A stretch of 64,000 nt of DNA from an uncultured Alphaproteobacteria bacterium (lineage in GTDB: Bacteria > Pseudomonadota > Alphaproteobacteria > HIMB59 > GCA-002718135): contig CACBLW010000004.1 of NCBI GenBank assembly GCA_902540265.1, forward strand, positions 12,901-76,900, written 5' to 3'. How positions within the stretch are numbered: the first letter of the stretch is position 1; every line of letters starts with the position of its first letter. The notes beneath the pieces are model-generated. The model had not been told where the DNA came from, searched no databases, and saw only the letters and a program-made list of their open reading frames with translations. Shown piece after piece: positions 4,155-53,091 of this stretch. Position numbers and translations under genes: made by a program.

Positions 4155-4156
4155 TA

Positions 4157-32640: not shown

Positions 32641-33202
32641 TATCTCTTACACCATATGGGTTGAATGATGTATCTTTATTAATATTAATGTTTTTAACAG
32701 GATTACCTACCATTGTTGCATAAGGAGGAACATCTTTTAATACCACAGTATTAGCTCCAACTCTTGCGCAACTTCCAATATTAATTGGACCAAGAATACT
32801 TGCACCACAACCAATAATTACATTATCCTCAATTGTTGGATGTCTTTTTGTATCTCTTTGATCTTTCGAATTTTCAGCAGGACTGATACCTCCTAATGTT
32901 ACGCCATGATAAAGTGTAACATTATCACCGATTTCACTTGTTTCACCAATTACAGTTCCCATCCCATGATCTATAAAAAGATTTTTACCTATCTTTGCAG
33001 CTGGGTGAATTTCAATTCCAGTTAAGAAACGACTAAATTGAGATATTATTCTTGCAAGAGTGTACAAATTTAAATTCCATAATTGATTTGCTATTTTATG
33101 AAAAAAAACAGATTTTACACCAGGATAAGTTAATATTATGCTTAGTTTACTTCTAGCTGCAGGATCTCTTTTAATTATTGATTCTAAATAACTATCCATC
33201 AT
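32624..33202 (-). CDS. cysE: serine O-acetyltransferase
   Basis: 192 aa with the left-handed beta-helix hexapeptide region [11 protein letters not shown] ... [30 protein letters not shown]. Confidence 0.88.
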
Positions 33203-33282: not shown

Positions 33283-35226
33283 TTATATATTAAAAAGTAC
33301 AACACTTATCGAGTGCGGTGGTAGTATTAAAAATCCTTTACTTGTTTTTAAGGAATTTTTTTTGATCTTAACACTTGAAGTGTTTTCATAAGTATTAAGG
33401 TCAACTTTATTAGATCCTTCAATACAATAATTTTCAGCAATCCTATCTAGATATGGAACTTTTAAAAGTATTTTCTCTGAACTTGATTTATTAACTACAG
33501 ACATACACATATGTTTTCCATTCATTGTTACTGCAGAGTCAATGAGTTTATTATTTTTATATTCAGGCTGTTTACCTAATTTAAAAGAAACAAAATTTGA
33601 AGAATTAACAACTGATTTTAAAATTTTACCTTTATGAAATTTTGTATAAAGTTCTAAAACAAGTGTTGTTGGAGTTTTCCAAATTTTCTTTTTTTCTATT
33701 CGGTAATTACCCATTACATTTATCAAATGATAAATGCCAGTGTTGGTTATTATATCCCCTCTATTTATACATGCGTTAAGAAGTGAAGCAGCATAAATTG
33801 CATCAGCAATATTATAATTCTCAATAAAATAAGGTGGAGTTGCTTCTACATAAGTGTTCCATTCATCAAAGGCTATTTTAATATTCTTATTGGAATATTT
33901 TTTTATTTCTCTTATCGTTCTATCTAACATTAATCTTACTTCTGTTGCGGCAGCAACAGTTGGAATATAACGTGTTTTATAATCTGGATGTTTTTTATCT
34001 TTCTCGGTTCTTATAGAATAATAATGGACACTCAATTCATCAATTTTTTCTTTAATATTTTTTAATACATACTCATTCCAATGACCAAAATGATCTGAAC
34101 AGGCACCAACTGCAATAAATCGTAATTTTTTATTTAATTTTTTTAACTCTTTTACAAAAGAATTATATTTATTTGCATAAGTAATTGGATCTGTATGACC
34201 AATTTGCCATCCTCCAAACATTTCATTTCCTATGAATATCGTTTGCAATTCATAAGGATTTTTTCTACCGTTTTTATATCTTAATTTTCCATATTTTGTA
34301 TTAATTGAACCAATCATATACTCGATCCAATTTTTTGCCTGTTCGATAGTACCATCACCAGTATTGATTGTAATCATTGGTTCGCTTCCAATATATTCAC
34401 ACCATTTCATAAATTCATCTGTACCTACATCGTTATACTCCCATTGATACCAAGCATGATCGTAGTAGGGAAGTCGATAATCTTTTTTTCCAACTCCATT
34501 CTGCCAATTATAACCTGAAAGAAAATTCCCTCCAGGCCAACGAATATAACTTGGCTTCCATTCTTTAATCATTTCTGTGATATCTTTTCTAAATCCAAAA
34601 ATTGTATTTTTTGGCATTAATGAACAGTTTGCAATAAAAATTGTTCCAGACTTAATAGAGATAGATAGTGTTTTGAGGCTATTACTTTTTTTAAAAGTAA
34701 ATGTTTTTTTAATTTTTTTCCAATTTTTATTTGCATTGAATGTAAAATTTATTTCTCCAATATTTATAAATACTTTCTGATTTTCACCTTTGAAATAAAT
34801 ACTGAATTCGTATTCATCTTTTGAGTCAATAATATTAATCTTTTGCTTAATACCTCTTTGTATTTTTGATTTTTCTCGAATAGTAATTTGTTGAGATTGT
34901 TTGCCACTCCCGTATCTACTAATAATCTCTTCACCTTTTACAATATATTCTGAGTTAGAATGTGCGTACATAACGTGTTTTGCAGAAGCGTTATAACCTT
35001 TCCAAGGCTGTACAATGCCAAAATCTAAATGATCATTTTCTAAACCATTGTTCCAAACTAATTTATCAGGACCACAAAATTTTCTATTTTCTACTACTTC
35101 TGCCCAAATTCCATTTCTATAAATTGCATCTCCAATATGTTCCAGATTAGTTCCAAACATATGTTTTGAAAGTTTTGATAGTATATTATTTTTTGAAAAA
35201 GAAATTGTTGCAATATTTTTATTCAT
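33283..35226 (-). CDS. cytoplasmic GH51-like glycoside hydrolase (alpha-L-arabinofuranosidase family)
   Basis: 647 aa with no signal peptide. It has the GH51-type segments FGTNLEHIGDAIYRNGIWAE and IRWPGGNFLSGYNW. The acid/base motif GNEMFGGWQIGH (Glu about 335) and the nucleophile motif FDEWNTY (Glu about 455) lie about 120 residues apart, as in GH51. A beta-sandwich-like insert spans about residues 60-205. Confidence 0.7.
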   Translation of the reverse strand: MNKNIATISFSKNNILSKLSKHMFGTNLEHIGDAIYRNGIWAEVVENRKFCGPDKLVWNNGLENDHLDFGIVQPWKGYNASAKHVMYAHSNSEYIVKGEEIISRYGSGKQSQQITIREKSKIQRGIKQKINIIDSKDEYEFSIYFKGENQKVFINIGEINFTFNANKNWKKIKKTFTFKKSNSLKTLSISIKSGTIFIANCSLMPKNTIFGFRKDITEMIKEWKPSYIRWPGGNFLSGYNWQNGVGKKDYRLPYYDHAWYQWEYNDVGTDEFMKWCEYIGSEPMITINTGDGTIEQAKNWIEYMIGSINTKYGKLRYKNGRKNPYELQTIFIGNEMFGGWQIGHTDPITYANKYNSFVKELKKLNKKLRFIAVGACSDHFGHWNEYVLKNIKEKIDELSVHYYSIRTEKDKKHPDYKTRYIPTVAAATEVRLMLDRTIREIKKYSNKNIKIAFDEWNTYVEATPPYFIENYNIADAIYAASLLNACINRGDIITNTGIYHLINVMGNYRIEKKKIWKTPTTLVLELYTKFHKGKILKSVVNSSNFVSFKLGKQPEYKNNKLIDSAVTMNGKHMCMSVVNKSSSEKILLKVPYLDRIAENYCIEGSNKVDLNTYENTSSVKIKKNSLKTSKGFLILPPHSISVVLFNI

Positions 35227-36274
35227 TCATCGCCCATATTTTATCACTGGGTAAATGAACATAAATTGTATCATCTGTTTTTATGTCTTGTAATCCTACA
35301 GATTGTAATGAGCATTCTAATTCTAAATTGTTTACTATAATTTTGTATCTAGTATGCGTTCCTGAAAATATTACTGATTTAATTAAGCCTTTGAATGAAT
35401 TATCATTGAAATCATTATTTTTACTTAACTTTATATTTTCGGGTCTAATAGTTATTATATTATCTTCATTTAAATCTGTATAATTTTCACCTTTGTAATG
35501 AACTGTTCCAATATTAGTAGATAGGTTATGATTATCTTTCTTTGCATTAATAAAATTAACTCCACCAAAAAATTTTGCAGCTTTTATATTTTTTGGTTTT
35601 TCATAATAATTTTTTGGAGAAGTAAAATTTTGGAGTTCGCCATCAAAAATTAAAGCTATCTTATCTGCTAGAAGAACCGCCTCTTCTTGATCATGTGTTA
35701 CAAATATTGTTGTTACTTTTAATTTTTGTTGAATAGTCACAATTAGATCTCGCATTTCATCTCTTAAATGCGCGTCAAGATTACTTAATGGTTCATCTAG
35801 AAGCAATATTCTAGGATTAGATATCAATGCTCTGGCTAGCGCAACTCTTTGTTGTTGACCTCCAGAAAGCTGTTTTGGCTTTCTTAATCCAATATCTGGT
35901 AATTTTACCAGTTCTAACATTTCTTTTACTTTTTGATCTATTATATTTTTATCTACACCTTTCATTTTTAATGCAAATCCAACATTTTCATTTACATTCA
36001 TATAAGGGAACAAAAGATAATTTTGGAAAACCATAACTACCCCTCTTTTTTCAGTTGGAATTTTTAATAGTGATTGCTCATCAAGAATAATATCTCCACT
36101 ATCAGGTTGAAATAATCCTGTGATCATTTTCAAAATAGTTGTTTTACCGCAACCTGAAGGTCCGAGAAATGCAACAAGTTCTCCACTTTCAATATCTAAA
36201 TTTACATTATTTACTGCTGGTCTATCCATGCTAGGAAAACTTTTAATTAAATTTTTAATATTTAATTTACTCAT
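35219..36274 (-). CDS. ABC importer ATP-binding protein with C-terminal regulatory/TOBE-like domain
   Basis: 351 aa with Walker A GPSGCGKTT, signature LSGGQQQR, and Walker B LLLDEP. Confidence 0.88.
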   Translation of the reverse strand: MSKLNIKNLIKSFPSMDRPAVNNVNLDIESGELVAFLGPSGCGKTTILKMITGLFQPDSGDIILDEQSLLKIPTEKRGVVMVFQNYLLFPYMNVNENVGFALKMKGVDKNIIDQKVKEMLELVKLPDIGLRKPKQLSGGQQQRVALARALISNPRILLLDEPLSNLDAHLRDEMRDLIVTIQQKLKVTTIFVTHDQEEAVLLADKIALIFDGELQNFTSPKNYYEKPKNIKAAKFFGGVNFINAKKDNHNLSTNIGTVHYKGENYTDLNEDNIITIRPENIKLSKNNDFNDNSFKGLIKSVIFSGTHTRYKIIVNNLELECSLQSVGLQDIKTDDTIYVHLPSDKIWAMNE

Positions 36275-36276
36275 TG

Positions 36277-37140
36277 TTATATTTTCCCAAATCCACTAGT
36301 AGCTCCAGATTCACCAGAAACAAATTTGGATGTAAAAAATAATATCAATATAGCAGGAAAAATAAATATAATTGATATTGCAGCTGTTAAAGCTGGATTC
36401 CCTGATGAGGCAGTTGAAAAAACAAGGAGTGGTAGTGTCATAACTTTTCCCGCACCAATTAAAAATGTTAAAAGATACTGACTCCATGAAACTAAAAATG
36501 CAAATAACGCCGCAACAACCATTCCTGGAGCTATAGCAGGTAAAGTAATTAATAAAAATGTTCTAGTTTTATTTGCACCTAAAGTTCTTGCTTGATGTTC
36601 AAAGTCAGGGTTATAGTTTGCAAATATTCCAGTCATAGTAAGAACTACGTATGGCATAATAGGTACTAAATGCACTAAACATACTCCAAAATAATTACCT
36701 GAAAAACCCCATGATATAAAATTGATATTCAGTCCTAAAACAAAAGCTATTGGGGGAAGTATAGTGGGCGAGACCATTATAAAAATAATTAATTTTTTAA
36801 ATCTAAAATTTAATAAACCCAGAACTCTTGCAGCAGGTAATGCAATTATTATTGAAACAATTGTCACTAAGAAACCAATACTTAAACTATTTAATAATGC
36901 TTTGATAACTGTAGGATTAGAAGCCCAAAGTTCTATAAAGCCTTCGAAGGTTCTTTGACCAGGTTTAGGTATTAATTTTAATCTTACCCAAGCTTGTAGA
37001 CTTAACTCTTTTGGAATAACTTGAGGATAAAACCATCTAAAAGAAAATGCATTAATAAAGAAGGCTATAAGAGGTAATATTAAGATAATTGCGCCTAAAT
37101 AAATTGCATATATATTTATTTTTTTTAAATTATTATTCAT
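36277..37140 (-). CDS. ABC importer permease
   Basis: 287 aa, about 6 TM helices, binding-protein-dependent transport inner-membrane component. Confidence 0.8.
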   Translation of the reverse strand: MNNNLKKINIYAIYLGAIILILPLIAFFINAFSFRWFYPQVIPKELSLQAWVRLKLIPKPGQRTFEGFIELWASNPTVIKALLNSLSIGFLVTIVSIIIALPAARVLGLLNFRFKKLIIFIMVSPTILPPIAFVLGLNINFISWGFSGNYFGVCLVHLVPIMPYVVLTMTGIFANYNPDFEHQARTLGANKTRTFLLITLPAIAPGMVVAALFAFLVSWSQYLLTFLIGAGKVMTLPLLVFSTASSGNPALTAAISIIFIFPAILILFFTSKFVSGESGATSGFGKI

Positions 37141-38015
37141 TAATCCTTCCTAATTTTTGCCTGAGTTAACCAAAAATAAAATACAACTAAAATCATTACT
37201 ATTATTGCAATAATAATGCTTAATGCCATCCCTTCACTTCTTGCATTAAGATCAGGGTTCAAGAAAAATTCAAATGCCATAACCGGTAACATTTGAGGAT
37301 AAATTACACCTAGCAAGGCTGGAACTTCATATGCACCAAAACTAAAAGCAAATACTATTATTGATGCAGAAAATAGATTTGGCATAACTAAAGGTAAAAT
37401 AACATATCGAAATCTTTGCCATCTATTTGCTCCTAAGCTTTGAGCAAGTTCTTCAAAATTTTCTCCTAAAGATTGTAATACTGACATTAAAATTATAAAA
37501 AAGAATGCTGCTTCTTTCCAAATATAAGCAAGAATAATACCTAAACCATATTTATCTTTAACTAATACGGGAAAATCTCCAGGACTCCCAATTAATCCAA
37601 TTTGAGATGCTAAACGAGCTAATAAACCACTTTGAGAAAATACGAATATAATGCCAACTGCTACAACTAAATGAGGCATTGGCAAGTTTAATGAATATAT
37701 AAAATTACAAATTGTTTTTGCAAAAAATGTTTTTCTTATTGCTAGAGCACCAAACAAAGCAAAAACTGCTGCTAAAAAAGTACTAGCAAAACTAACCCAT
37801 AAATTTAATCCTAAGCCAGTCCAAAATAATTTTGCATATCTTTCGGAAAACATAACATTGTAATACGCTGAAAAATTTATTTCATATTTTCCAATTGCTG
37901 GTTGGTACCCTAAGCTTTGTAAAAATCCATAAAAAATTCCTCCAAAAAAAAGAGTAAAAATAATTAAAAGGGGCGGAGTTAAAGATAAGATAATTTTTAA
38001 TCTTTCTCCGCCCAT
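37140..38015 (-). CDS. ABC importer permease
   Basis: 291 aa, about 6 TM helices, with an EAA-like loop (LGANRWQRFRYVILP). Confidence 0.8.
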   Translation of the reverse strand: MGGERLKIILSLTPPLLIIFTLFFGGIFYGFLQSLGYQPAIGKYEINFSAYYNVMFSERYAKLFWTGLGLNLWVSFASTFLAAVFALFGALAIRKTFFAKTICNFIYSLNLPMPHLVVAVGIIFVFSQSGLLARLASQIGLIGSPGDFPVLVKDKYGLGIILAYIWKEAAFFFIILMSVLQSLGENFEELAQSLGANRWQRFRYVILPLVMPNLFSASIIVFAFSFGAYEVPALLGVIYPQMLPVMAFEFFLNPDLNARSEGMALSIIIAIIVMILVVFYFWLTQAKIRKD

Positions 38016-38035
38016 TTTCTTAATAAAATATTATT

Positions 38036-39286
38036 TTATTTTAAAAGTACGTTTGCTTCCCAATCAGCTTCAATTAAATCTTGATATTCTGCAGCAATGT
38101 CAGAAACAAGAGCCTTCGCAAGGATGTCTTGATCCTCAGCGGCATCTCCAAGATTATTTTGAGCTTCAGCTATTGCAGCTTTTCCAGCAGCATCTGTAAC
38201 TTTAGCCGTGCTAATACCCCAACCACAGCAGAAACCATTTGCTGGTTGTACTTGAGCAGCTTGTAGTTCAGGTTCTAATACTAGGTTTGCATATACTAGT
38301 GCAGCAGCTTTGTTAGGAGCGTTATAAGGAATAGCCCAATAATTGAAATCTCCGATCATATTTTCATAAAAAGCAAATGCTCTTGATGTTGGAGGTGTTG
38401 TTCCGGCAGTATTTGTAGGTCCAGCACCTCTTGGAGATTGTGTAAAATCTAAATCAACTTCACCATTAGCAAATAGACTATGCATTTCTGCATTATCTTT
38501 TGGATAAGTTTCTCCACTTCTCCAAAGATCTTTTTCCCAAGAATTTAATAATTTCCAAACTTCTGGAGCCCACTTATCATATAATTCTTGATTGAATGGA
38601 CCTACCCACTGCGCGTGTCCACCACTTAGCTCAAAGAAAATTTGTTTTACAAATCTAGTACCAACAAATCCACCTTTACCAGGTCTTATGTAAGTAAATC
38701 TTCCAGGGTTTTCTGCTATCCAATTACTTAATTCAGCATAACTACGAGGCATATCATCATAATTATTTCTTGCTGAGTCATACATAAAGTGGAACTGAGC
38801 ACTAGACCATGGACTTTCCATACCTTCGACAGGTCTTCCAAAGTCTAAGTTTACTGCTGGATTGTCCCATGCAACAAATTCACTGTTAGGTAAACCAGCA
38901 GCGAATGGTCCATAAAGAAGATTAGCTTGTTTTAATGTCCAGAAATTTTCTCCATTAATCCAAATCAAATCAATATTTCCATTATCGCCAGTTACTCCAG
39001 CTTCTTTCTCACTTAGTACTTGGTTCACAGCGTCAACTGTTCCTTTTAAAGGAACTCTGTTCAAAGTTATGTTATATTTTTCTTTTAATGGAACTCCATA
39101 AAAGTCATCAACAAAACCATTGATAGCGTCTGATCCACCCCACATGTACACATTTACCTGTCCGCCATCAGCTGCTTTAACAACATCATCCCATGAATTA
39201 AATCCAGGTGCAGTTTCAGCAAATACTAATTTTGAAAAAAATAAACTTATAAATGTTAAGGTAAGAAATTTAAGTTTAATTTTCAT
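38036..39286 (-). CDS. periplasmic ABC substrate-binding protein, YnjB-like
   Basis: 416 aa with a signal peptide (MKIKLKFLTLTFISLFFSKLVFA). The VYMWGGSDAINGFV and IDLIWINGENFWTLKQANLL segments resemble E. coli YnjB as I remember it. It is not a CUT1/CUT2 sugar SBP pattern. Confidence 0.6.
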   Translation of the reverse strand: MKIKLKFLTLTFISLFFSKLVFAETAPGFNSWDDVVKAADGGQVNVYMWGGSDAINGFVDDFYGVPLKEKYNITLNRVPLKGTVDAVNQVLSEKEAGVTGDNGNIDLIWINGENFWTLKQANLLYGPFAAGLPNSEFVAWDNPAVNLDFGRPVEGMESPWSSAQFHFMYDSARNNYDDMPRSYAELSNWIAENPGRFTYIRPGKGGFVGTRFVKQIFFELSGGHAQWVGPFNQELYDKWAPEVWKLLNSWEKDLWRSGETYPKDNAEMHSLFANGEVDLDFTQSPRGAGPTNTAGTTPPTSRAFAFYENMIGDFNYWAIPYNAPNKAAALVYANLVLEPELQAAQVQPANGFCCGWGISTAKVTDAAGKAAIAEAQNNLGDAAEDQDILAKALVSDIAAEYQDLIEADWEANVLLK

Positions 39287-39319: not shown

Positions 39320-40759
39320 TTAATTTGATTCATTATCCTTTGGTGAAATATAATCTACTAAAGGAATCTCGTCTACAAGCTTTAAATCATTCCAAGCTGC
39401 AAATTCTAATAATTCTTTACTATAATCTCCTTGACCCACTGCATAATGATGTTCATGTCCAATAATATTTAGAGTATTTATCAGGTTTTCTGCCGAAATA
39501 TGAGATCTGTTTAATTTTGTTTCTTTAAACCATCCTCTTGTTCCATCAAAACCTTTATTATTATGTTCAAAAATTTCTGAATTTATAATTAATATTCTTT
39601 CAGCATTATTTCCTAAGTATGTTGTTGTAGATTTTCGAGCTTTAAATACTTGATCTCCAGCAACGCCATATTTTTTATCTGTTTTTCTTCCTAACGTACT
39701 ATGATCAACCCATTTTATTCCATCTTCATTCGCAAAATGTCTTGGTGACACTCCGCAGTGCCACATTAATACGGCATCAGCATTAGTATCAAATGTTGCA
39801 AGATCTAAAAGTGTAGATGATTTATCACTGTTTGATATGTAATTTAATAATAGCATACTTAATGAACCTTGAACATCTCCTTCACAAGATACCGCAATAC
39901 CATCTTCGCTACCCATCCAACCATAAGCCATGCAAGGAGCAATTCCATATAATTCTTGAAACTGAGACCAACATTGGACTGCCATAGAGTCCCAGTTATT
40001 TTCATGTCTTATTTTTTTTAATGCAAAATATACTCTTGTGACTTTATTGAATGATTCTTCATCTGATACTGAGATTGAAGATGCAGCATTTTTTATTTTT
40101 TTTATTTCTTCATCAATTAATGATTGATCAAAACTTTTTGCTAGTGAAATTAATTCTTTAATTGTTGTTTCTTCAATTGTTGATCCAATATTTTGTTTTA
40201 TTTTTTTATTATCGACAATCATATTGTCAAAACCTGGAGATATACCACCAACTAATCCTATTTTTGATTGTTTAATTTTTTTATCTGCTACCAATGATCT
40301 TAAAGTAATCAAAAACTTGTTTTTAAATTCATCAGTATCACCATAATTATAAAACCATTTAGTTTTAATTTTTTTTTCATGAAGTATTTTTTTAATTATT
40401 CCTAAATAATGACTTACTGAAACTAAAGAGTGTAATTTTACATCACCTTCTTTTTCAAGATCTGGAACTGCCCATAAACCCATCTTATTTGTAATATTAC
40501 AAAGAGGGTATAATTGTTCTCCTGAACTGCATGAACTTGTTTGTAGTATTAAAAAATCAATTTTGTTTTTAAAAAATTTTTCTGCCTCTACTGAGTCCTC
40601 TTTTGAAAATATAGTTTTATGGAAACAAATTAATTTAGCATCATATTCTGCAATGATATTTTTTAGATGATTTTCAGATTTTATTCTTACTTGTTGTTCT
40701 TCTGAAAAGTAAGGACTAATTGCTGTAGCTACAAAACCAATTGTCAATACTTCCTTCAT
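39320..40759 (-). CDS. L-arabinose/L-fucose isomerase superfamily protein
   Basis: 479 aa, cytoplasmic. The central AVSCEGDVQGSL and C-terminal GHEHHYAVGQGD segments resemble the catalytic-Glu and metal-His regions of AraA/FucI-type aldose-ketose isomerases. This is a by-eye call. Confidence 0.55.
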   Translation of the reverse strand: MKEVLTIGFVATAISPYFSEEQQVRIKSENHLKNIIAEYDAKLICFHKTIFSKEDSVEAEKFFKNKIDFLILQTSSCSSGEQLYPLCNITNKMGLWAVPDLEKEGDVKLHSLVSVSHYLGIIKKILHEKKIKTKWFYNYGDTDEFKNKFLITLRSLVADKKIKQSKIGLVGGISPGFDNMIVDNKKIKQNIGSTIEETTIKELISLAKSFDQSLIDEEIKKIKNAASSISVSDEESFNKVTRVYFALKKIRHENNWDSMAVQCWSQFQELYGIAPCMAYGWMGSEDGIAVSCEGDVQGSLSMLLLNYISNSDKSSTLLDLATFDTNADAVLMWHCGVSPRHFANEDGIKWVDHSTLGRKTDKKYGVAGDQVFKARKSTTTYLGNNAERILIINSEIFEHNNKGFDGTRGWFKETKLNRSHISAENLINTLNIIGHEHHYAVGQGDYSKELLEFAAWNDLKLVDEIPLVDYISPKDNESN

Positions 40760-40792: not shown

Positions 40793-40820
40793 TTGTCAAT
40801 TAATTAATCTTAAGTATAAT
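40793..40820 (+). promoter_or_regulatory. candidate sigma70-type promoter for the plus-strand island operon
   Basis: TTGTCA (40793-40798), a 16-nt spacer, then TATAAT (40815-40820), located 45 nt upstream of the E1-alpha ATG. Such matches arise easily by chance in AT-rich DNA. Confidence 0.3.
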
Positions 40821-40864: not shown

Positions 40865-41842
40865 ATGATTGAGAAAGAAAAAATTAATTGGATCTATAAA
40901 AAAATCTTCACGATTAGATTTTTTGAAGAAAGAATAAAAAAAATTGCTAAAGAGAAAACAGTCCCAGGCTATCTTCACACTTGTATTGGTTCTGAGGCTA
41001 TTTGTGTAGGAGTAATGGCAGCATTAAATCAAGATGATTGGATATCAAGTACGTATAGAAACCATGGTCATGCTATAGCTAAAGGTTGTGAATTAAACGA
41101 AATTACTTCTGAAATTTATGGAAGAAAAACTGGAATTTGCAAGGGGCGAGGCGGTAGTATGCATATAAGTGATTTTAGCAAAGGTATGCTTGGTTCATTT
41201 GGAATTGTTGCAGCTGGTCCAGCAGTAGTTTTAGGAGCAGCTTTACAAGAAAAAATAAATAAGAGTAATAAAACATGTGTATCTTTTTTTGGTGATGGTG
41301 CAATTCATAACGGAGCTTTTCATGAGGCTGCAGGTTTAGCAAAGCTATGGGATATACCAATGATTTTTGTTTGTGAAAATAATGGTTATGCGGAAGCTAC
41401 TGCAACTGATTGGCATTTAAATACAAAAGAGTTATCAGATATAACTAAAGCTTATGACATGCTCTCGTACATTGGTGATGGCAATAATGTATTTAAAGTT
41501 TACGACATTTCCAAAAAAGCTATTAATGAAGCTAAACAAAAAAATACTCCCATATTTTTAGAATTTAAAAACTACAGATTTTCTGGACAGTACGAAGGCG
41601 ATACTCAACTTTATCAACCACAAGAAGAAATTGATAAAGCAAAACAAAATGATCCAATAAAGTTAGCAAAAGAAAATTCATCAAAATATGGTTTGAACAA
41701 AAATGATTTAGAAAAAATTATTAATGAAGCTAAAGAAGAGGTTGATAAAGCATTTGATTTTGCTGATACTCAACCTTGGCCTCAACCAGAGGATGCACTT
41801 GAAGAAGTATATGTAAATTATCCAGTGGAAATTAATAGATGA
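40865..41842 (+). CDS. TPP-dependent 2-oxoacid/acetoin dehydrogenase-type E1 alpha subunit
   Basis: 325 aa with the TPP-binding motif GDGAIHNGAFHEAAGLAKLWDIPMIFVCENNGYA. Confidence 0.8.
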   Translation: MIEKEKINWIYKKIFTIRFFEERIKKIAKEKTVPGYLHTCIGSEAICVGVMAALNQDDWISSTYRNHGHAIAKGCELNEITSEIYGRKTGICKGRGGSMHISDFSKGMLGSFGIVAAGPAVVLGAALQEKINKSNKTCVSFFGDGAIHNGAFHEAAGLAKLWDIPMIFVCENNGYAEATATDWHLNTKELSDITKAYDMLSYIGDGNNVFKVYDISKKAINEAKQKNTPIFLEFKNYRFSGQYEGDTQLYQPQEEIDKAKQNDPIKLAKENSSKYGLNKNDLEKIINEAKEEVDKAFDFADTQPWPQPEDALEEVYVNYPVEINR

Positions 41843-42855
41843 CAATAAAAACAGTTAAAGATGCAATTAATGATGCCTTAGTTCAATCATTTGAAGAAGA
41901 TAAAAATGTTATTTTGATGGGTGAAGATATTGCAGGAGGTAAAGGTCGAGAACAATATCAAGGTACACAAGATGCATGGGGAGGACCTTTTGGTGTTACT
42001 CAGGGACTTTATACTAAATTTGGTGGAGAAAGAGTTCGAGATACTACTATTGCAGAAGCAGGTTTTTTTGGTGCCGCCATTGGAGCTGCAATGACAGGAT
42101 TAAGACCTATTGTGGAATTAATGTATGTTGACTTTGCTGGTGTATGTTTTGATCAAATGATGAATCAAGCAGCTAAAGTGAGATACATGTTTGGTGGCAA
42201 ACAAAAAGTACCGATGGTTGTAAGAACTGTAGTCGGTGCAGGATTTCGTGCAGGTAGTGAACATTCACAAACTCTTTATAGTCTTTATACTCATATACCA
42301 GGGCTAAAGGTTGTTGCGCCATATGATGCATACGATGCCAAAGGTCTTTTACTATCCTCAATTAAAGATGATGATCCAGTAATTTTTATGGAGCATAAAA
42401 GATTATACATGACAAGCTGTGAAGTGCCTGATGATTTAAAACCTATTCCGCTTGGTAAAGGTAGAATAAGAAGAGAAGGAAGTGATGTTACTATTATTGC
42501 TATTCAAAGAATGAACTTATTTGCTGAAGAAGCAGCTGATGAATTAGAAAAAATTAATATTAGCTGTGAAATAGTTGATCCAAGAACTTATTCTCCACTT
42601 GATGAGGAATTAATTTTTCAATCAGTCAAAAAAACTGGTAAAGTTATAGTTGTTGATGAATCAAATCCTAAATGTTCTTTGGCTTCAGAAATATCTTCTT
42701 TAATTTCAGAAAAATGTTTTTCAGATTTAAAAGCTGCAGTAATTAAAATAACTGCTCCTCATACCCCTGTACCATTTAGTCCACCAATGGAAGATTTTTA
42801 TATTCCTTCAACAAAAAAAATAATTGATGCGGTTAAAAAATTAAAAGATGTATAA
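41839..42855 (+). CDS. TPP-dependent dehydrogenase-type E1 beta subunit (transketolase-like Pyr + C-terminal domains)
   Basis: 338 aa with the ERVRDTTIAEAGF, SQTLYSLYTHIPGLKVVAP and DDPVIFMEHKRLY segments. It overlaps E1 alpha by 4 nt. Confidence 0.8.
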   Translation: MTIKTVKDAINDALVQSFEEDKNVILMGEDIAGGKGREQYQGTQDAWGGPFGVTQGLYTKFGGERVRDTTIAEAGFFGAAIGAAMTGLRPIVELMYVDFAGVCFDQMMNQAAKVRYMFGGKQKVPMVVRTVVGAGFRAGSEHSQTLYSLYTHIPGLKVVAPYDAYDAKGLLLSSIKDDDPVIFMEHKRLYMTSCEVPDDLKPIPLGKGRIRREGSDVTIIAIQRMNLFAEEAADELEKINISCEIVDPRTYSPLDEELIFQSVKKTGKVIVVDESNPKCSLASEISSLISEKCFSDLKAAVIKITAPHTPVPFSPPMEDFYIPSTKKIIDAVKKLKDV

Positions 42856-42886: not shown

Positions 42887-43996
42887 ATGCAAGTTCCTAA
42901 AAAAATTTTAGATAAATTCCCAAAATTATCAAAAGAAATTTTGCTTAACAATTTATCCTTACCTAGTGAAAAAAATAAAATGATACTTGATACAGATACA
43001 GCTAATGAAATAGATGATCAATTTGCATTAGCATGGACATTATTATCAAAAGATAAAATTGATCTTTTAGGAGTTACTGCTGAGCCTTATTCTTTCCAAC
43101 ATCATAAAGACGAATTAATAGAAGCATTCGATATAATATCTAACAATAAAACTATTGATAATACTAAAGAAAATTTAGTTTCTGATTATAGATCTTGGGT
43201 TAATGGACTCATAGATGCAAATATTCATCCAAATGATATTTATTTTGATACACCAGAAGAAGGAGTTGAAAAAAGCTATCAAGAAATAATTACTATATTT
43301 AATAAACTTAATATTAAACATGAAGGAATGGTGTTTAGAGGTTCACCTAAATATTTAGAAAATTATAACGAACCAATAGTAACTGAATCTAGTAAATTCA
43401 TAGTAGATATGTGTAAAAAATATTCAAATGAAAAGATTTATGTTTGTGCAATAGGGTGTCTTACAAATATCGCTTCGGCTCTTTTAACAAACCCAGAAAT
43501 TATTAAAAATTTAGTAGTTGTTTGGACATCTGGTTTTCCTACATACAGTTTTAATAATAATAAAAACTCATTGAATTTAGTTCAAGATGTTTTAGCATCT
43601 CAATTACTTTTTGAATGTGGTGTTGCTCATGTTTATTTACCAGGTTTCAATGTGGGGGCGCAGTTAACTCTTTCATTACCCGATATGAAAGAATTTGTAA
43701 AAGGAAGAGGGGAAATAGGTGATTACTTATATTTTCTATACACAAATAACCCTTTGCATAAACAAAGAGGTGTTTTAGATCAAAGTTGGAGAACATGGGT
43801 CATATGGGATGTTATTAATATTGCTTGGCTAATAAATCCAAATTGGGTTCCAACAAAAATTATCAATTCCTCATCACTTGATAATGAATTGTACTGGATT
43901 AAAAATGATAGCAATCATCTTATTAGAGAAGCCTTTGGTGTTAATAGAGATGAAATTTTTAATGATTTTTTTAAAAAATTAAATAATCTTAAATGA
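42887..43996 (+). CDS. inosine-uridine-preferring nucleoside hydrolase (IUNH)-like protein
   Basis: 369 aa with the N-terminal aspartate cluster LDTDTANEIDDQFALAW (the DTDxxxxxDD variant of the IUNH Ca-binding motif). Confidence 0.6.
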   Translation: MQVPKKILDKFPKLSKEILLNNLSLPSEKNKMILDTDTANEIDDQFALAWTLLSKDKIDLLGVTAEPYSFQHHKDELIEAFDIISNNKTIDNTKENLVSDYRSWVNGLIDANIHPNDIYFDTPEEGVEKSYQEIITIFNKLNIKHEGMVFRGSPKYLENYNEPIVTESSKFIVDMCKKYSNEKIYVCAIGCLTNIASALLTNPEIIKNLVVVWTSGFPTYSFNNNKNSLNLVQDVLASQLLFECGVAHVYLPGFNVGAQLTLSLPDMKEFVKGRGEIGDYLYFLYTNNPLHKQRGVLDQSWRTWVIWDVINIAWLINPNWVPTKIINSSSLDNELYWIKNDSNHLIREAFGVNRDEIFNDFFKKLNNLK

Positions 43997-44835
43997 AATT
44001 AGGAGTTCATTCAGCAACATTTGTTAAAAATTGGTCAGAGGATATTACTCCTTATATTAAACTTTGTAGAGATGCTGGTTACTCTTCAGTTGAAGTATCA
44101 TTACTAGGTCAAAACGAAAAGTCAGCCATAGAAATAGGTAAATTAAGTAAAGATCTAGATATTAATATTACATGTACAACAGGTTTGTCTAAGGATGAAG
44201 ACATAACAAGTAATAATCAAAATATTAGAAAAAGAGGTAAGGATAAACTCATAGAGGCTATTAATTTGACTTCTCTTATGGGGTCAAAAATTTTATCTGG
44301 GGTTATACACACTGCATGGGGAATAAGTGATAATTATGGAAAAGATAAATCTCTAAAATATAAAAATTCATCAAATACTCTAATTGGATTAACAGACATT
44401 TTAGAAGATAAAGATATTAAATTAGGAATAGAGCCTCTAAATAGATATGAAACTGATTTTATTAACACTGTTGATGAAGGTTTAGAATTATGCTCGATGA
44501 TCAACCATTCTCACATTGGTTTATTGTTAGATGTTTATCATATGAATATAGAAGAGAAAGATATTTGCGCGTCAATTCTCAAAGCAAATCATAATATTTT
44601 TCATTTTCATGTAGCAGAAAATGATAGAGGTATACCTGGTTCAGGAGGGTTAAATTTTAATAGAATTTTTGAAACTTTAAATACAATAAATTATTCTGGT
44701 AATGTTACTTTAGAAATGTTTATTCAATCAAACCAAGAGACAAGTAAAGATTTATTTACATGGAGAAATATTGAAGATAATCCTTTTGATGCAATTCAAA
44801 AATCTTATAAATATTTAAAGAATTTTATTAAATGA
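43993..44835 (+). CDS. xylose-isomerase-like TIM-barrel protein, ketose 3-epimerase-like
   Basis: 280 aa. GIEPLNRYETDFINT, LLDVYHMNIEE, HFHVAENDRGIPGSG and TLEMF match the four metal-ligand segments (E, D, H, E) of D-tagatose/D-psicose 3-epimerases. Confidence 0.7.
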   Translation: MKLGVHSATFVKNWSEDITPYIKLCRDAGYSSVEVSLLGQNEKSAIEIGKLSKDLDINITCTTGLSKDEDITSNNQNIRKRGKDKLIEAINLTSLMGSKILSGVIHTAWGISDNYGKDKSLKYKNSSNTLIGLTDILEDKDIKLGIEPLNRYETDFINTVDEGLELCSMINHSHIGLLLDVYHMNIEEKDICASILKANHNIFHFHVAENDRGIPGSGGLNFNRIFETLNTINYSGNVTLEMFIQSNQETSKDLFTWRNIEDNPFDAIQKSYKYLKNFIK

Positions 44836-45443
44836 TAGAATTTCATAAAAAATGGATAACTAATTCTTGTTTAATAATAAAAGAAAACTGTCAAAAAATT
44901 AATATGCTTGATCAAGAGATTGGTGATGGAGATCACGGTACAACAATATTAAGAGGCCTAGAGGAAGCTGTATCTCATTTTAGAGCAAATAATGAATTTG
45001 ATAATTCAATATCATTTATGAATGAAATTTCGAAATTGATGAGAATTTCTATGGGTGGCGCTTCTGGTATTTTGATGACAATCTTCTTTAAAGAATTAGG
45101 TAATTTAAATTTTAATGATCTTTATAATACAATCTTAACTACTTTTTCAAATACTATAAATAAAATAGAAACAAGAGGTAAAGTAAATTTTGGTGATAAA
45201 AGTTTTTTAGATATTTATGTACCTATTCATCAAGAATTAATTCAAAATAATCTTATTGATTTTGATAAATTAATTACAAAAATTGATGAATCTCTCGAAT
45301 ACACAAAATCTTTGGAAGCTCGTGTTGGCAGAGCAAAGTTTTTAGATTCAAAAGGTGTTGGTGTGATAGATCCAGGCGCATATTCAACGTCTATAATATT
45401 AAAAGAATTCTTTAAGGAAATTAATAATGAAAAAAATAATTAA
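44832..45443 (+). CDS. dhaL: dihydroxyacetone-kinase family, nucleotide-binding L subunit
   Basis: 203 aa with the DQEIGDGDHGTT motif of the DAK2/DhaL domain. Confidence 0.8.
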   Translation: MIEFHKKWITNSCLIIKENCQKINMLDQEIGDGDHGTTILRGLEEAVSHFRANNEFDNSISFMNEISKLMRISMGGASGILMTIFFKELGNLNFNDLYNTILTTFSNTINKIETRGKVNFGDKSFLDIYVPIHQELIQNNLIDFDKLITKIDESLEYTKSLEARVGRAKFLDSKGVGVIDPGAYSTSIILKEFFKEINNEKNN

Positions 45444-46425
45444 TAACAACATAAATATCGTGGATGATATGTTGAGTGGTTATGTTAAATCACATTCAGA
45501 CAGAGTTAAATTTTCTGAAATAAATAAAAGAATTATTTGTCGAAAAAATAAAAAACAATTTAATAAAGTTCCCATCTTGATAGGAAACGGATCTGGTCAT
45601 GAGCCTATTGCCGTAGGTTGGGTTGGTGAGGGTATGCTTGATGCTAATATTGTTGGAGATATTTTTTCTGCTCCTTCAGGAGATTTAATATTTGAAGGAA
45701 TTAAAATTTTTAAGGATCATTCTTCTATTTTATTATTAATTTCTAATCATTCTGGTGATGTAATGAATGGAGAAATGGCAATAGAAATGGCTGAAGATGA
45801 AAATATAAATGCTAAATGTTTAATTATGTATGATGACATAGCTTCTGCACCAAAAGGAAATGAAGCTCAAAGAAGAGGAGGGGCAGGTACAACATTTGTT
45901 TATAAAATACTTGGAGCCTTATCTGAAAAAGGTGCTGATATTAAACAATTACTAAGTCTAGGAAAACAAATTATTGATAATACAAGAACATTATCAGTTG
46001 CAATAAGCCCTGGCACATCTCCAATTACTGGAGAAAAAATTTTCTCAATTAAAGAAGATGAAATTTTTATAGGAATGGGTGTTCATGGAGAGTCTGGATA
46101 TGGTAGGCAAAAAATTCAACCATCTAAAAAAATTATTTCATTTATGTTAGATAAAATATTTGATGATTTTAATTACAAATCGGGCGATATAGTAATACCA
46201 TTTGTTAATGGATCAGGGTCTACAACTTTAATGGAATTATTAATAATATTTAATGATTTAGAAGAATATTTATCAAAATATAATATTCAAATATTTAAAC
46301 CTTTAATTAATGAATACATCACAACCCAAGATAGTGGAGGATTTTCTATATCTTTACTAAATTCTAGTGAAGAAATGAGAAAATTATGGCTGGAGCCTTC
46401 ATCAGTTCCTTATTTTCATTTGTGA
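45427..46425 (+). CDS. dhaK: dihydroxyacetone-kinase family, substrate-binding K subunit
   Basis: 332 aa with the GNGSGHEPIAVGWVGEGMLDA and GMGVHGESG (substrate-binding His) motifs of the DAK1/DhaK domain. It overlaps dhaL by 17 nt. Confidence 0.8.
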   Translation: MKKIINNNINIVDDMLSGYVKSHSDRVKFSEINKRIICRKNKKQFNKVPILIGNGSGHEPIAVGWVGEGMLDANIVGDIFSAPSGDLIFEGIKIFKDHSSILLLISNHSGDVMNGEMAIEMAEDENINAKCLIMYDDIASAPKGNEAQRRGGAGTTFVYKILGALSEKGADIKQLLSLGKQIIDNTRTLSVAISPGTSPITGEKIFSIKEDEIFIGMGVHGESGYGRQKIQPSKKIISFMLDKIFDDFNYKSGDIVIPFVNGSGSTTLMELLIIFNDLEEYLSKYNIQIFKPLINEYITTQDSGGFSISLLNSSEEMRKLWLEPSSVPYFHL

Positions 46426-47348
46426 TGTATCAAAAAGAATTAATTAATGATGTCTTAATTAATAAAAAGTTTTTTGCATTAGCAATAGACCAGGGAACGA
46501 GTCTAAAAGAAATTATAAATCAAAAAAAAAATAATTTTAAAGATGAGGATTATTTTTTTTTCAAAAAAAATATAATAGAAATATTAGGATCAAATCTTTC
46601 AGCTGTTTTATTTGATTTTGATACATATGAAAAACATGAAAAGTTTAAAAATTTAAATATACCAAAAATTATTGCATATGAAGATGATGCTTATAACATT
46701 GATAATGTTGAAAGAATTACTAAACTACCAAATAATAAATCAATAGATAAAACAATAGATGATTTTAAGGCAATTAAATTTTTTATGTATTATAATCCAG
46801 ACTCTCCTCAAGAAATAAACAATAAAAAAAATATTTTAATAAAAAAAATAGGAAAAATGTGTTTAAATTTAAATAAACCATTTTTATTTGAGCCCTTATT
46901 GTACAATGATCCTTTAACCAAAAACTCTAATGAAGAATATAATAAGAAAAAGCATGAATATATAAAATATTTTTACTCTGAATTTTCTAAACCAGATTAT
47001 AATGTTAGCATTATTAAAATCGAGTTTCCTTTTAATGAAAGTATTATAGATGATTATAATAACGTTAATACAATTAGTTATTGTGAAGAAATATTATTGA
47101 ATACATTTGGTAAAACAATGAAGCCATTTGTATTTTTGAGTGCTGGAATGAAATTTAGTAATTTTTATAAATCAATGTCTATTTCAATGAAATTAAACAT
47201 TAATTGCCTTGGTTTTTTATGTGGAAGATCTTTATGGCAAGATTCAATTGATATATTTTGCAATCAATCAAATACTGAATTTATTAAATGGTTAGAAAAT
47301 CAAGGTTTGGAGAGAGTTGAAAAACTTAAATCGACTTTAGATTTATAA
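46425..47348 (+). CDS. LacD/YihT-family class I aldolase (tagatose-bisphosphate aldolase-like)
   Basis: The N-terminal FFALAIDQGTSLKEII segment resembles the ALAFDQRG signature of LacD-type aldolases. I prefer the ATG at 46425 (TGATG overlap with the dhaK stop) over the track start at 46386. Confidence 0.55.
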   Translation: MYQKELINDVLINKKFFALAIDQGTSLKEIINQKKNNFKDEDYFFFKKNIIEILGSNLSAVLFDFDTYEKHEKFKNLNIPKIIAYEDDAYNIDNVERITKLPNNKSIDKTIDDFKAIKFFMYYNPDSPQEINNKKNILIKKIGKMCLNLNKPFLFEPLLYNDPLTKNSNEEYNKKKHEYIKYFYSEFSKPDYNVSIIKIEFPFNESIIDDYNNVNTISYCEEILLNTFGKTMKPFVFLSAGMKFSNFYKSMSISMKLNINCLGFLCGRSLWQDSIDIFCNQSNTEFIKWLENQGLERVEKLKSTLDL

Positions 47349-47362: not shown

Positions 47363-48238
47363 ATGAAAAAAATTGGATTTATTGGAATAGGTACAATGGG
47401 TTTACCGATGGCCTCTAATATTATTAACAAAGGTTATAGTTTATCCTTTTATGATCCTTTTGTTAATTCTGAGTCAGTTAATACTTTAGAAAAACTAGGA
47501 GGTATCCAAAAATCAAGTTTATCAGAATTATCTCAAGATGTTGAAATAATCATTACTATGTTGCCAAATGGAAACAATGTGAAAGAAGTATGTTTTGGTA
47601 AAAATGGTTTGATTTATCAAGATAATAATAATTTTGTATTAATTGATATGAGTACAATCAATCCTAATGATTCTATTTTTATTAATGAGGAGCTAAATAA
47701 AAATAACATAAAAATGTTTGATGCACCTGTTGCAAGATTAGTACAGAATGCAATTGATGGTACTCTTTTAATAATGGTAGGTGGTAATAAAGATGAATTT
47801 AAGAATATAAAAAATTTATTAGAAACTATGGGAAGCGATATAGTTTATTGTGGTGAAAATGGCTCAGGTAGTAAAATGAAAATTATAAATAACTACATGT
47901 CCATTGCCTTAAATATATTGACAGCAGAAACTTTAAATTTAGCTGATAAATCAGGTATAGACAAAAAAATGGCTATTGAATTAATGCTCACAACTGCAGC
48001 CGGGAAGGGACACATGAATTTGACATATCCTGCTAAAGTTTTTAAAGACGATGTATCCCCAGGTTTTAAAAATAATTTAGCATTAAAAGATTTACGTCTT
48101 GCTATTCAATTTGCATCTGAGCAAAGTTTAGATCTAAATATGGGTAAGGCAGCAGAGAAAATTTATAATGATGCTTCAAAAAAAGAATTTGGAGATCTAG
48201 ATTGGACATCAATGTTTAATTTTATTAAAAATAAATGA
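47363..48238 (+). CDS. NAD(P)-dependent beta-hydroxyacid dehydrogenase (3-hydroxyisobutyrate dehydrogenase / YihU / GarR family)
   Basis: 291 aa with the N-terminal Rossmann motif KIGFIGIGTMGLPMA and a catalytic-Lys region (GSGSKMKIINN). An AAGGAGA SD precedes it. Confidence 0.8.
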   Translation: MKKIGFIGIGTMGLPMASNIINKGYSLSFYDPFVNSESVNTLEKLGGIQKSSLSELSQDVEIIITMLPNGNNVKEVCFGKNGLIYQDNNNFVLIDMSTINPNDSIFINEELNKNNIKMFDAPVARLVQNAIDGTLLIMVGGNKDEFKNIKNLLETMGSDIVYCGENGSGSKMKIINNYMSIALNILTAETLNLADKSGIDKKMAIELMLTTAAGKGHMNLTYPAKVFKDDVSPGFKNNLALKDLRLAIQFASEQSLDLNMGKAAEKIYNDASKKEFGDLDWTSMFNFIKNK

Positions 48239-49362
48239 TCAAAATAACAAATATCAAAATTTATTTATTAAAATATAAAAACAAAAATCCTGTACTTTCT
48301 TCTTTTGGTAATATCAAATTTAGATCCTCTTTAGTTATAGAAATTCATGATGAAAATAATAATAATGGAATAGGGGAAATATGGTGTAATTTTCCAAATC
48401 ACGGCGGTAGATATAGATTTGAAATTTTAAAAGACTATTTTATTGATTTTTTAATTAATTTTCAATTTGAAGACCCCACAAGTGTTAAAAAATTTTTAAC
48501 AGAAAAATTTAATTCAATTAAAAATCAAACAGGTGACTTTGGTGCTTTTGAAAACATTTTTTCTGGCATCGATTGTGCTGCATGGGATCTTTTTTCTAAA
48601 ATTAAAAAAAAACCATTAAACAAATTAATTAATGATCAATCCAAAAATAAAATTAAAGTTTATGCAAGTGGGATAAACAGAGATGAACACTTAGAAAGAA
48701 TTCAAGAAGCCCGTCTTTTGGGCATAGATAGATTTAAAGTTAAAATTGGGTTTAATATTTTAGAAGACATTAAAGCGATAACTTCTATTGAAGAAACTAT
48801 AGAATCTAATGAAAAATATATGTTAGATGTTAACCAGGCTTGGAGCTTAGATAATGTTCATGAAAATATTAGTAAATTAAAAAATTTCAATTATTTGTGG
48901 TTAGAAGAACCTATATCTGCAAACCATTCAATATCTGAAATAGTTCAATTAAACAAATTACACAAAAATTTAGCATTTGGTGAAAATCTAATTTATTTAA
49001 AAAAATTTTATGATTTAGATAATGATACACAAATACAGTTTTTACAACCAGATTTAGCACGTTATGGAGGTATCACTGACATCTTAGATTTAGGTAAAAA
49101 TATTAAAAAAAATAAAATATGGTTACATTATTTGGGAGGAGCTATTGGCTTAATTTCTTCAGCTCATATTATGTCAGCTTTAAACCCTGATGGATATTTA
49201 GAATATGATATTAATGAAAATGAACTCAGAACAAAAATAGTAAATCCATCATTTCAAATTATTAACGGTTATCTAGAATTAAATGAAAATTATGGAATTG
49301 GTTTTCAGATATCTGACAATTTAAATCAATTTATTGATCAATTTTATGAATACAGAAATTAA
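48235..49362 (+). CDS. enolase-superfamily enzyme (mandelate racemase / muconate lactonizing enzyme family)
   Basis: 375 aa with the KxK motif (RFKVKIG) and metal ligands (MLDVNQAW, WLEEP, AFGEN), plus LQPDLARYGGIT. Confidence 0.75.
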   Translation: MIKITNIKIYLLKYKNKNPVLSSFGNIKFRSSLVIEIHDENNNNGIGEIWCNFPNHGGRYRFEILKDYFIDFLINFQFEDPTSVKKFLTEKFNSIKNQTGDFGAFENIFSGIDCAAWDLFSKIKKKPLNKLINDQSKNKIKVYASGINRDEHLERIQEARLLGIDRFKVKIGFNILEDIKAITSIEETIESNEKYMLDVNQAWSLDNVHENISKLKNFNYLWLEEPISANHSISEIVQLNKLHKNLAFGENLIYLKKFYDLDNDTQIQFLQPDLARYGGITDILDLGKNIKKNKIWLHYLGGAIGLISSAHIMSALNPDGYLEYDINENELRTKIVNPSFQIINGYLELNENYGIGFQISDNLNQFIDQFYEYRN

Positions 49363-49732
49363 AGTTTATTACGAAGATACCGATGCCTCTGAAAGAGTTT
49401 ATTATGCAAATTATCTAAAATTTCTTGAAAGAGGAAGAACAGATTACTTATATAACTTAGGCTTCACTCACAAAAATATACTAGAAAAATATAAATTCTA
49501 TTTTGTAGTAAAGAATTGCAAGATAGACTATAAAAAGCCAGCATACTTTGAGGATATTTTAAAAATTACGACAAAAATTATAAACATTTCTAAAGTAAAA
49601 ATATTGTTTCATCAGCAAATCAAAAAGAATGAAGAATTATTGGTTGATTCGGAAATATTAATTACTCCAGTTTTTTTTAATGGTAAAATTGCAAAAATTC
49701 CCAATGAAATGCTAGAAAAATTTTCGACATAA
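49346..49732 (+). CDS. YbgC/4HBT-family acyl-CoA thioesterase
   Basis: It has the hotdog-fold N-terminus MNTEIKVYYEDTDASERVYYANYLKFLERGRTDYL. I prefer the ATG at 49346 over 49334. Confidence 0.7.
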   Translation: MNTEIKVYYEDTDASERVYYANYLKFLERGRTDYLYNLGFTHKNILEKYKFYFVVKNCKIDYKKPAYFEDILKITTKIINISKVKILFHQQIKKNEELLVDSEILITPVFFNGKIAKIPNEMLEKFST

Positions 49733-53088: not shown

Positions 53089-53091
53089 AAT

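Follow-up and report, generated by a model that had tools for sequence, protein, structure and literature searches.

An E1 enzyme pair without lipoyl partners in sugar-catabolic gene clusters of marine Alphaproteobacteria and other bacteria

Positions 40865-42855 of a 64-kb stretch of DNA from an uncultured marine alphaproteobacterium (hereafter the window; C4:12901-76900 of a 1.4-Mb genome that is 78% complete) encode an E1 alpha/beta pair that heads a sugar operon on the plus strand. The G+C content of the window is about 28%. Judged from sequence comparison, the pair is best read as a heterotetramer-type enzyme dependent on thiamine diphosphate (ThDP), derived from the E1 component of acetoin or pyruvate dehydrogenases, that no longer passes its intermediate to a lipoyl group. 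Its independence of a lipoyl-acyltransferase (E2), which the initial annotation had proposed from the window alone, is strongly indicated, because the pair belongs to a monophyletic clade without lipoyl neighbors and because a conserved histidine of the E1 alpha active-site loop is replaced by glutamine throughout that clade. As to function, we lean toward a non-oxidative C-C (ketol) lyase or transferase role in a pathway that handles free, unphosphorylated sugars. This reaction type, its substrate, and the sequence of the steps are what we infer from the residues and the gene content described below.

A clade of E1 pairs without lipoyl partners

E1 alpha (40865..41842, plus strand; 325 aa, PF00676 with E 4.5e-67) and E1 beta (41839..42855, plus strand; 338 aa, PF02779 with E 1.9e-43 and PF02780 with E 2.3e-36) overlap by the tetranucleotide ATGA. 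The initial annotation had likewise described an E1 alpha with a thiamine motif and an E1 beta that overlap by 4 nt and lead the operon, and its coordinates agree with ours. The residues expected to bind ThDP and to carry the first half-reaction are kept in the alignment: the motif in E1 alpha reads GDGAIHNG...ENNGYA, which preserves the GDG...NN pattern, and E1 beta retains the ThDP-activating Glu73 (in DTTIAE) and the catalytic His142 (in EHSQ). These two residues correspond to E59 and H128 in G. stearothermophilus, and the roles of the activating glutamate and the catalytic histidine have been described (PMC2663715).

To place the pair, we built a maximum likelihood tree of 86 E1 beta sequences and scanned one genome per prokaryotic species, which returned 80 E1 loci. 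All E1 beta homologues found in the context of DhaK, of an IUNH-like protein, or of a homologue of U479 (the 479-aa product of the gene divergent to E1 alpha) fall together with the window sequence in one clade, with a Shimodaira-Hasegawa-like approximate likelihood ratio test (SH-aLRT) value of 99. This clade spans Alphaproteobacteria, Chloroflexota, Actinobacteria, and a metagenome-assembled genome (MAG) of Polynucleobacter, and it is sister to the AcoAB/AcoC-type E1s of rhizobia and Pseudomonas. The possibility, raised at the outset, that the pair might sit inside a well-characterized E1 clade is therefore not borne out: by sequence, it lies outside AcoAB, pyruvate dehydrogenase (PDH), and branched-chain 2-oxoacid dehydrogenase (BCKDH). 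Its score against TIGR03182 is 304 bits, under the cut-off of 394 bits, and no AcoC accompanies it.

The AcoA/AcoB system with AcoC, an E2 that combines lipoyl and alpha/beta-hydrolase domains, nevertheless offers the closest comparison. The two groups share about 54-57% identity, a short alpha N-terminus, the ThDP motif, and an insert in E1 beta; the substrate of AcoAB is a ketol, not an acid, and some AcoABC-type clusters also lie among AP_endonuc_2, Gfo/Idh/MocA, and DhaKL genes. The window pair differs in having no AcoC or other lipoyl gene, in carrying glutamine for histidine in the alpha loop, and in several clade-specific changes near the active site, namely N148H in E1 alpha and S72A (beside the activating glutamate), Q141E (beside the catalytic histidine), F136, and R188 in E1 beta. 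Further clade-specific changes are H64Y in E1 alpha and Q223, Y251, and S275 in the C-terminal domain of E1 beta.

The insert itself had been flagged by the initial annotation as a set of extra residues in E1 beta. It comprises residues 33-49, GGKGREQYQGTQDAWGG, lies between GED(I/V) and FGVT, and is real when compared with PDH-type E1 betas, which have a 14-residue gap at this place. However, it is not peculiar to the window pair, since AcoB-type E1 betas with an AcoC neighbor carry 10-13 of the insert residues and the window clade is only 3-4 residues longer. The insert thus appears to be an AcoB-type trait that is not diagnostic and says little about the pair.

A first contrast between the clade and other E1s lies in their gene neighborhoods. 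When searched with a hidden Markov model (HMM) of the lipoyl domain, the 18 clade loci yielded no lipoyl open reading frame (ORF), whereas 55 of the 58 E1 loci that bear the loop histidine have one within 5 kb on the same strand, and one of the three exceptions is a 3-kb contig. Similarly, loci whose E1 beta is at least about 56% identical to that of the window show a sugar context and no E2 (the SAR324 locus L028, at 55%, stands apart), while in nearly all more distant E1 loci AcoC or another E2 comes immediately after. A search of a plasmid collection returned no clade member; its best matches were of the AcoABC type, at no more than 57% identity. Within the window, as first noted, neither an E2 nor a dihydrolipoamide dehydrogenase (E3) gene is present, and the lipoyl-domain HMM finds GcvH alone. 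This sole lipoyl protein of the window (25784-26167) is encoded about 15 kb upstream, inside gcvTHP (24679-29020).

The second line of evidence concerns the active-site loop of E1 alpha, which reads YRFSGQYEGD in the window, with Gln242 aligned to the histidine of human E1 alpha (YRYHGHSMSD). The loop is GQ(Y/F)EGD in 18/18 clade members and YRxxGH(S/F/Y)xxD, with GH, in 58/58 others. Among 150 representatives of clusters at 50% identity, 133 carry histidine and 7 glutamine, and four or five of these 7 come from this clade. For the loop histidine (H271 of the alpha subunit in G. stearothermophilus; H407 in E. coli), a role in helping the acetyl group pass to lipoate has been proposed (PMC2663715).

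Sugar-catabolic neighborhoods of the E1 pair

According to the initial annotation, the genes after E1 beta encode a hydrolase, an epimerase, a kinase, and an aldolase. These are recognizable as an IUNH-like protein, an AP_endonuc_2 protein, the DhaL/DhaK kinase, and a LacD-family aldolase, all tightly packed on the plus strand. The IUNH-like protein (42887..43996; 369 aa) has a nucleoside-hydrolase fold, and its orthologues adjoin E1 beta in several clade loci. The AP_endonuc_2 TIM-barrel protein (43993..44835) has D-psicose 3-epimerase as its best named match, at 207 bits against a cut-off of 300, and a hydroxypyruvate-isomerase similarity of 69 bits. The kinase consists of the DhaL (Dak2) subunit (44832..45443) and the DhaK (Dak1) subunit (45427..46425), the latter a single copy in the genome, and the class I aldolase of the LacD/DeoC family (46386..47348) scores 211 bits against NF009498, over the cut-off.

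Four further plus-strand genes complete the string. A YihU/GarR-like beta-hydroxyacid dehydrogenase (47363..48238) is followed by three accessory genes that occur in the marine lineage only, encoding an MR_MLE enolase-superfamily protein resembling acid-sugar dehydratases (48235..49362), a 132-aa hotdog-fold (4HBT) thioesterase (49334..49732), and a BASS-family transporter (49785..50621). The transporter, the last gene of the string, possibly exports a by-product.

On the opposite strand, U479 (39320..40759, minus strand; 479 aa) matches no Pfam family and is predicted to adopt the fold of L-arabinose isomerase. Its structural model has a predicted local distance difference test (pLDDT) value of 90, and Foldseek aligns it over its full length with L-arabinose isomerases (E 3e-26, TM-score 0.78); D-arabinose and L-fucose isomerases are the next structural matches. 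Invariant Glu, Asp, and His residues fit a metal site, and the model suggests that U479 is probably an aldose-ketose isomerase. Beyond it on the minus strand lie an ATP-binding cassette (ABC) importer (35219..39286) and a 647-aa GH51-like hydrolase of the alpha-L-arabinofuranosidase family (33283..35226). The importer is made up of a PRK11622/YnjB-type substrate-binding protein (38036-39286; 380 bits), two permeases (37140-38015 and 36277-37140), and an ATPase (35219-36274).

A divergent spacer of 105 nt precedes E1 alpha. It contains a sigma-70-like promoter match, TTGTCA-16-TATAAT (40793..40820, plus strand), which agrees with the consensus at 11 of 12 positions and is the best of the region; this site is a consensus match only, and the count of such matches in the region is not above shuffled expectation.

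The neighborhood is not particular to the window. Around the E1 genes of clade members lie an AraA-fold isomerase, an AP_endonuc_2 epimerase/isomerase, a kinase of the DhaKL or FGGY type, and a LacD-type or class II aldolase for ketose phosphates, together with an ABC importer and glycosidases that vary. Homologues of U479 are the most frequent direct neighbors of E1 beta in other loci. On each of four long contigs, U479, the ABC importer, the AP_endonuc_2 protein, DhaL/DhaK, and a DeoC-family aldolase are found together, with no E2, and an IUNH-like gene is present on some of them (L008, L010). The set of U479 or IUNH, AP_endonuc_2, DhaKL, and DeoC/LacD aldolase recurs across Alphaproteobacteria, Chloroflexota, Actinobacteria, and Polynucleobacter. 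The link between E1 and DhaKL is real and recurs across phyla. Additionally, the isomerase or epimerase, the kinase, and the aldolase are tied together by gene fusions in clade loci, which join AP_endonuc_2 to DhaK (L009), DhaK to DeoC, and DhaL to DeoC. In L010, the genes for DhaK and for the U479 homologue are both broken into two ORFs (6357-7374 and 11032-12514), which may reflect decay of the cluster or assembly errors.

The glycosidases vary by locus and lineage, with a GH51-like enzyme in the window, GH42 in L021, and IUNH, purine nucleoside phosphorylase (PNP), or a fragment of an ADP-ribosylglycohydrolase elsewhere. In the Limnocylindrales MAG of L021 (3758-5932), the GH42 gene, of the beta-galactosidase family, has the ABC importer on one side and the Gln-type E1 on the other.

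A related arrangement is found in the same genus. Four other species carry a His-bearing E1, which AcoC follows in the neighborhoods examined (L095, L096). In L095 (G028:C1:141000-160900), the His-bearing E1 alpha/beta and AcoC, with its lipoyl and alpha/beta-hydrolase domains, are clustered with three AP_endonuc_2 genes, a short-chain dehydrogenase/reductase, two Gfo/Idh/MocA genes, an EamA exporter, and a DhaK-TpiA-DhaL operon. In this cluster, related species have an oxidative counterpart to that of the window. The DhaK-TpiA-DhaL operon beside the E1 cluster suggests that the kinase acts on a triose: the Dak kinase there would make dihydroxyacetone phosphate, so that the cleavage step would yield a triose.

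Possible reactions and competing explanations

In the pathway that we favor, the ABC system would import a glycoside or sugar, and a variable glycosidase would free the sugar (the GH51-like and IUNH-like proteins in the window; GH42, IUNH, or PNP elsewhere). The AraA-fold isomerase and the AP_endonuc_2 enzyme would convert this sugar to a 2-ketose, whose keto group would be attacked by the ThDP of E1, with cleavage of the C2-C3 bond as in acetoin E1 and transketolase; alternatively, E1 could activate an alpha-hydroxy-aldehyde released by the aldolase. More broadly, the step would break or make a C2-C3 bond. The resulting C2-ThDP carbanion would be resolved by protonation, with release of an aldehyde, or by transfer to an aldehyde acceptor, without oxidation by lipoate. 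DhaKL would then phosphorylate the triose or ketol fragment for entry into glycolysis.

Transketolase-like action on a sugar-derived 2-ketose, giving a ketol for DhaKL, as the initial annotation suggested, is one of several placements consistent with these data. We tentatively prefer a reaction in which a ketol unit is cleaved or transferred from a free ketose and the triose passes to DhaKL. The data are also consistent with the capture of glycolaldehyde or lactaldehyde freed by a ketose-1-phosphate aldolase, and with decarboxylative carboligation from a 2-oxoacid donor. One comparison bears on the choice. The IUNH clusters that have no U479 (L008, L017, L023) also have no aldolase within reach, which favors E1 cleaving the ketose itself, with DhaKL phosphorylating the fragment, and argues against E1 handling only an aldolase product.

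Known enzymes provide partial parallels for such a step. AptAB, the apulose-4-phosphate transketolase of the apiose pathway, and SqwGH, the sulfofructose transketolase, belong, as split ThDP enzymes, to the superfamily of the window E1, and each comes after an isomerase in a dedicated pathway of sugar breakdown; for SqwGH, this isomerase is of the FucI family. Their alpha-equivalent is Transketolase_N (PF00456), however, whereas the window alpha is E1_dh (PF00676), and AptAB is associated with an FGGY kinase rather than DhaKL. With transketolase-model scores of 22.7 bits for alpha and 43.5 bits for beta against cut-offs of about 488 bits, the pair is not a transketolase by domain or score. In methylotrophic yeasts, dihydroxyacetone synthase, which carries out ThDP-dependent ketol transfer, is functionally linked to a kinase of the Dak family, by which the released triose is phosphorylated. 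That enzyme belongs to a different ThDP subfamily and to different organisms, and no formaldehyde link is evident in the window, so that the yeast system serves as an analogy only.

Several observations weigh against the pathway outlined above. Because the Gln clade is monophyletic, the correlation between the loop residue and the missing E2 represents a single evolutionary event, not 18 independent ones. The His142 of E1 beta, also proposed as the proton donor for lipoate acylation, is retained, although it is needed for the first half-reaction as well. The E2s of PDH or of 2-oxoglutarate dehydrogenase (OGDH) could in principle be used in trans. Furthermore, L095 and the SAR324 locus L028 pair His-bearing E1s with DhaKL, which implies that the sugar association pre-dates the loss of E2 and does not itself imply non-oxidative chemistry. 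The Gln-type E1 and IUNH are retained in L024 (a freshwater actinobacterial MAG; 4109-11894) and L026 (the Polynucleobacter MAG), where an FGGY kinase and a class II aldolase take the place of DhaKL and the LacD aldolase and where a zinc-dependent alcohol dehydrogenase and a D-2-hydroxyacid dehydrogenase are added. The persistence of E1 there speaks for a conserved neighborhood, but this variant looks like a complete module from L-xylulose to D-xylulose-5-phosphate that needs no E1. Finally, the varying glycosidases (GH51, GH42, IUNH, PNP) allow for several possible sugars.

Among the competing explanations, the one that fares best is a non-oxidative 2-oxoacid decarboxylase or carboligase, similar to DXS or glyoxylate carboligase, although we consider it unlikely. 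The donor would be hydroxypyruvate, glyoxylate, or a 2-keto-3-deoxy sugar acid, and the product a ketose or triose that is handed to the AP_endonuc_2 enzyme, the reductase, and DhaKL. In favor of this, 2-oxoacids are the substrates for which the E1 fold is built, and the operon resembles gcl-hyi-glxR in combining a ThDP enzyme, an AP_endonuc_2 protein with similarity to hydroxypyruvate isomerase, and a HIBADH-family protein like tartronate-semialdehyde reductase. The MR_MLE dehydratase of the window and the D-2-hydroxyacid dehydrogenase that adjoins E1 alpha in L024 and L026 are further points in its favor. However, these dehydrogenases and the dehydratase are outside the conserved core, the aldose-ketose isomerase within the core and the glycosidases fit free neutral sugars, and AcoAB, the nearest relatives, act on a ketol and not on an acid.

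A second explanation is that the pair is an ordinary oxidative E1 of the acetoin- or 2-oxoacid-dehydrogenase type, which borrows the PDH or OGDH E2 and the E3 and yields an acyl-CoA. The initial annotation had mentioned a borrowed E2 as its alternative, and the partners do exist: the genome encodes two E2s and a single E3 (lipoamide dehydrogenase), all outside the window. One E2 belongs to the PDH operon of C9, together with a lipoyl-bearing E1 beta and an E1 alpha of its own, and the other is on C21, beside the 2-oxoglutarate dehydrogenase E1 and the single lipoamide dehydrogenase. The nearest relatives outside the clade are AcoAB with AcoC, E1 beta keeps His142, and a hotdog thioesterase is present in the operon, all of which would suit this explanation. 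Part of what had been named as evidence against E2-independence, namely canonical E2/E3 operons elsewhere in the genome, is thus found, but each of these E2s is paired with its own E1. This pairing and the change from histidine to glutamine, which affects every clade member, disfavor the use of an E2 in trans; in addition, the clade loci lack the lipoyl gene that nearly all control loci have (0/18 compared with 55/58), and the thioesterase is limited to the marine lineage. We regard the oxidative explanation as very improbable.

A third explanation, considered seriously and then downgraded, is that the marine cluster is a new variant of sulfoglycolysis, in which E1 would stand in place of the SqwGH sulfofructose transketolase. 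U479 would then be a SqvD/SftI-type isomerase, DhaKL a sulfofructose kinase, the LacD-type enzyme a sulfofructose-phosphate aldolase, the YihU-like protein a sulfolactaldehyde reductase, and the BASS transporter a sulfonate exporter. The only NCBIfam match of U479 is indeed the sulfoquinovose isomerase SftI (138 bits), and the reductase shares 38% identity with YihU of E. coli, has YihU as its top model (NF012005 at 300 bits, under the cut-off of 348 bits), and keeps equivalents of the YihU sulfonate-pocket residues Arg123, Asn174, and Ser178. As in sulfoglycolysis of the Embden-Meyerhof-Parnas type (sulfo-EMP), YihS/V/T/U, the aldolase belongs to the Pfam family of YihT and the last gene of the operon encodes an exporter; L009 and L095 have EamA exporters, and sulfoglycolysis is known for non-orthologous enzyme swaps (PMC9594981).

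Nevertheless, the 138 bits of U479 are far under the cut-off of 700 bits, and a closer SftI-like paralogue (291 bits) is encoded in another cluster of the same genome. In that second sugar cluster (C6:68000-87900, L099), the SftI-like isomerase is accompanied by a PfkB kinase, a Gfo/Idh/MocA protein, a D-2-hydroxyacid dehydrogenase, an ABC importer, and the only GH31 of the genome, in which the sulfonate triad of YihQ (R301/W304/Y508) reads K/Y/F. The window cluster itself has no sulfoquinovosidase, mutarotase, or GH31, its aldolase is 21% identical to YihT, and its isomerase and kinase families differ from those of sulfo-EMP, in which an E1 has no place. Most clade loci lack the reductase and exporter, and the GH51 and GH42 neighbors suggest arabinose- or galactose-type sugars. 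Taken together, these points leave the sulfoglycolytic explanation little credence.

Other candidates were rejected. The pair is not a replacement for a lost transketolase, as the lineage has a normal 667-aa Tkt. The known apiose transketolase cluster of E. coli SE15 uses an FGGY kinase, a split transketolase, and a DUF2291-type importer, and survives only as an analogy; within that analogy, cleavage of free apulose to dihydroxyacetone would fit the DhaK-TpiA-DhaL operon in L095. An apiose-type, AptAB-bearing cluster directly adjoins the E1 cluster in L007 (1-7665, on a 1.4-Mb contig), with a split transketolase, a Fucose_iso_C isomerase, and DUF2291 with a ribose-type ABC importer. The 5-deoxyribose/methylthioribose shunt to dihydroxyacetone phosphate and the degradation of autoinducer-2, which the PNP, IUNH, and aldolase neighbors might recall, give E1 no role and are unsupported.

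Flanking genes, occurrence, and meaning of the clade

Two minus-strand groups border the sugar genes. At 30476-33202, starting 80 nt downstream of the GH51-like gene, three translationally coupled genes encode a serine-acetyltransferase-like hexapeptide protein, a PALP protein of the CysK/CBS fold, and an enzyme of the Cys/Met gamma-lyase family. At 50607-54276, a PhyH-family dioxygenase, an ABC-2 exporter pair, and a photolyase FAD-binding-domain protein converge on the end of the sugar operon.

Near-identical copies of the window are carried by single-cell genomes of uncultured marine Alphaproteobacteria, and hundreds of contigs from ocean metagenomes hold near-identical genes of the marine version. 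A homologue search with E1 alpha returned near-identical variants only (99-100%), while E1 beta has many metagenomic homologues at 60-74% identity. Rather few sequenced species carry the pair, which is nevertheless very common in ocean metagenomes. Within the genus, the sugar/E1 cluster is accessory, being present in 5/25 species representatives, and therefore the marine cluster may mark a specific dissolved-sugar niche.

A literature search for E2-less E1 enzymes linked to DhaK or to sugar catabolism found no description, and the sulfoglycolysis reviews of 2022 and 2026 mention no such enzyme. It is possible that the clade represents an undescribed class of E1-derived enzyme, a "free-ketose ketolase", which would take a C2 unit off unphosphorylated ketoses and leave the remainder to a triose kinase/aldolase module, a proposal that we put forward with reserve. 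If this is true, abundant oligotrophic marine bacteria and the Chloroflexota and Actinobacteria of soils would have a way into central metabolism for diverse glycosides that does not depend on stereochemistry; in the marine lineage, a sulfonated or otherwise anionic sugar might also be used in this way, with the C3 remnant reduced and exported. The clade has a simple signature, GQ(Y/F)EGD in E1 alpha and no lipoyl neighbor, by which further members may be recognized. E1 components are the textbook obligate partners of lipoyl-bearing E2 cores, and a clade that has neither the E2 nor the corresponding histidine and that appears to have been recruited to sugar breakdown would add a new reaction type to the very well-studied E1 family and a new step to carbohydrate catabolism.

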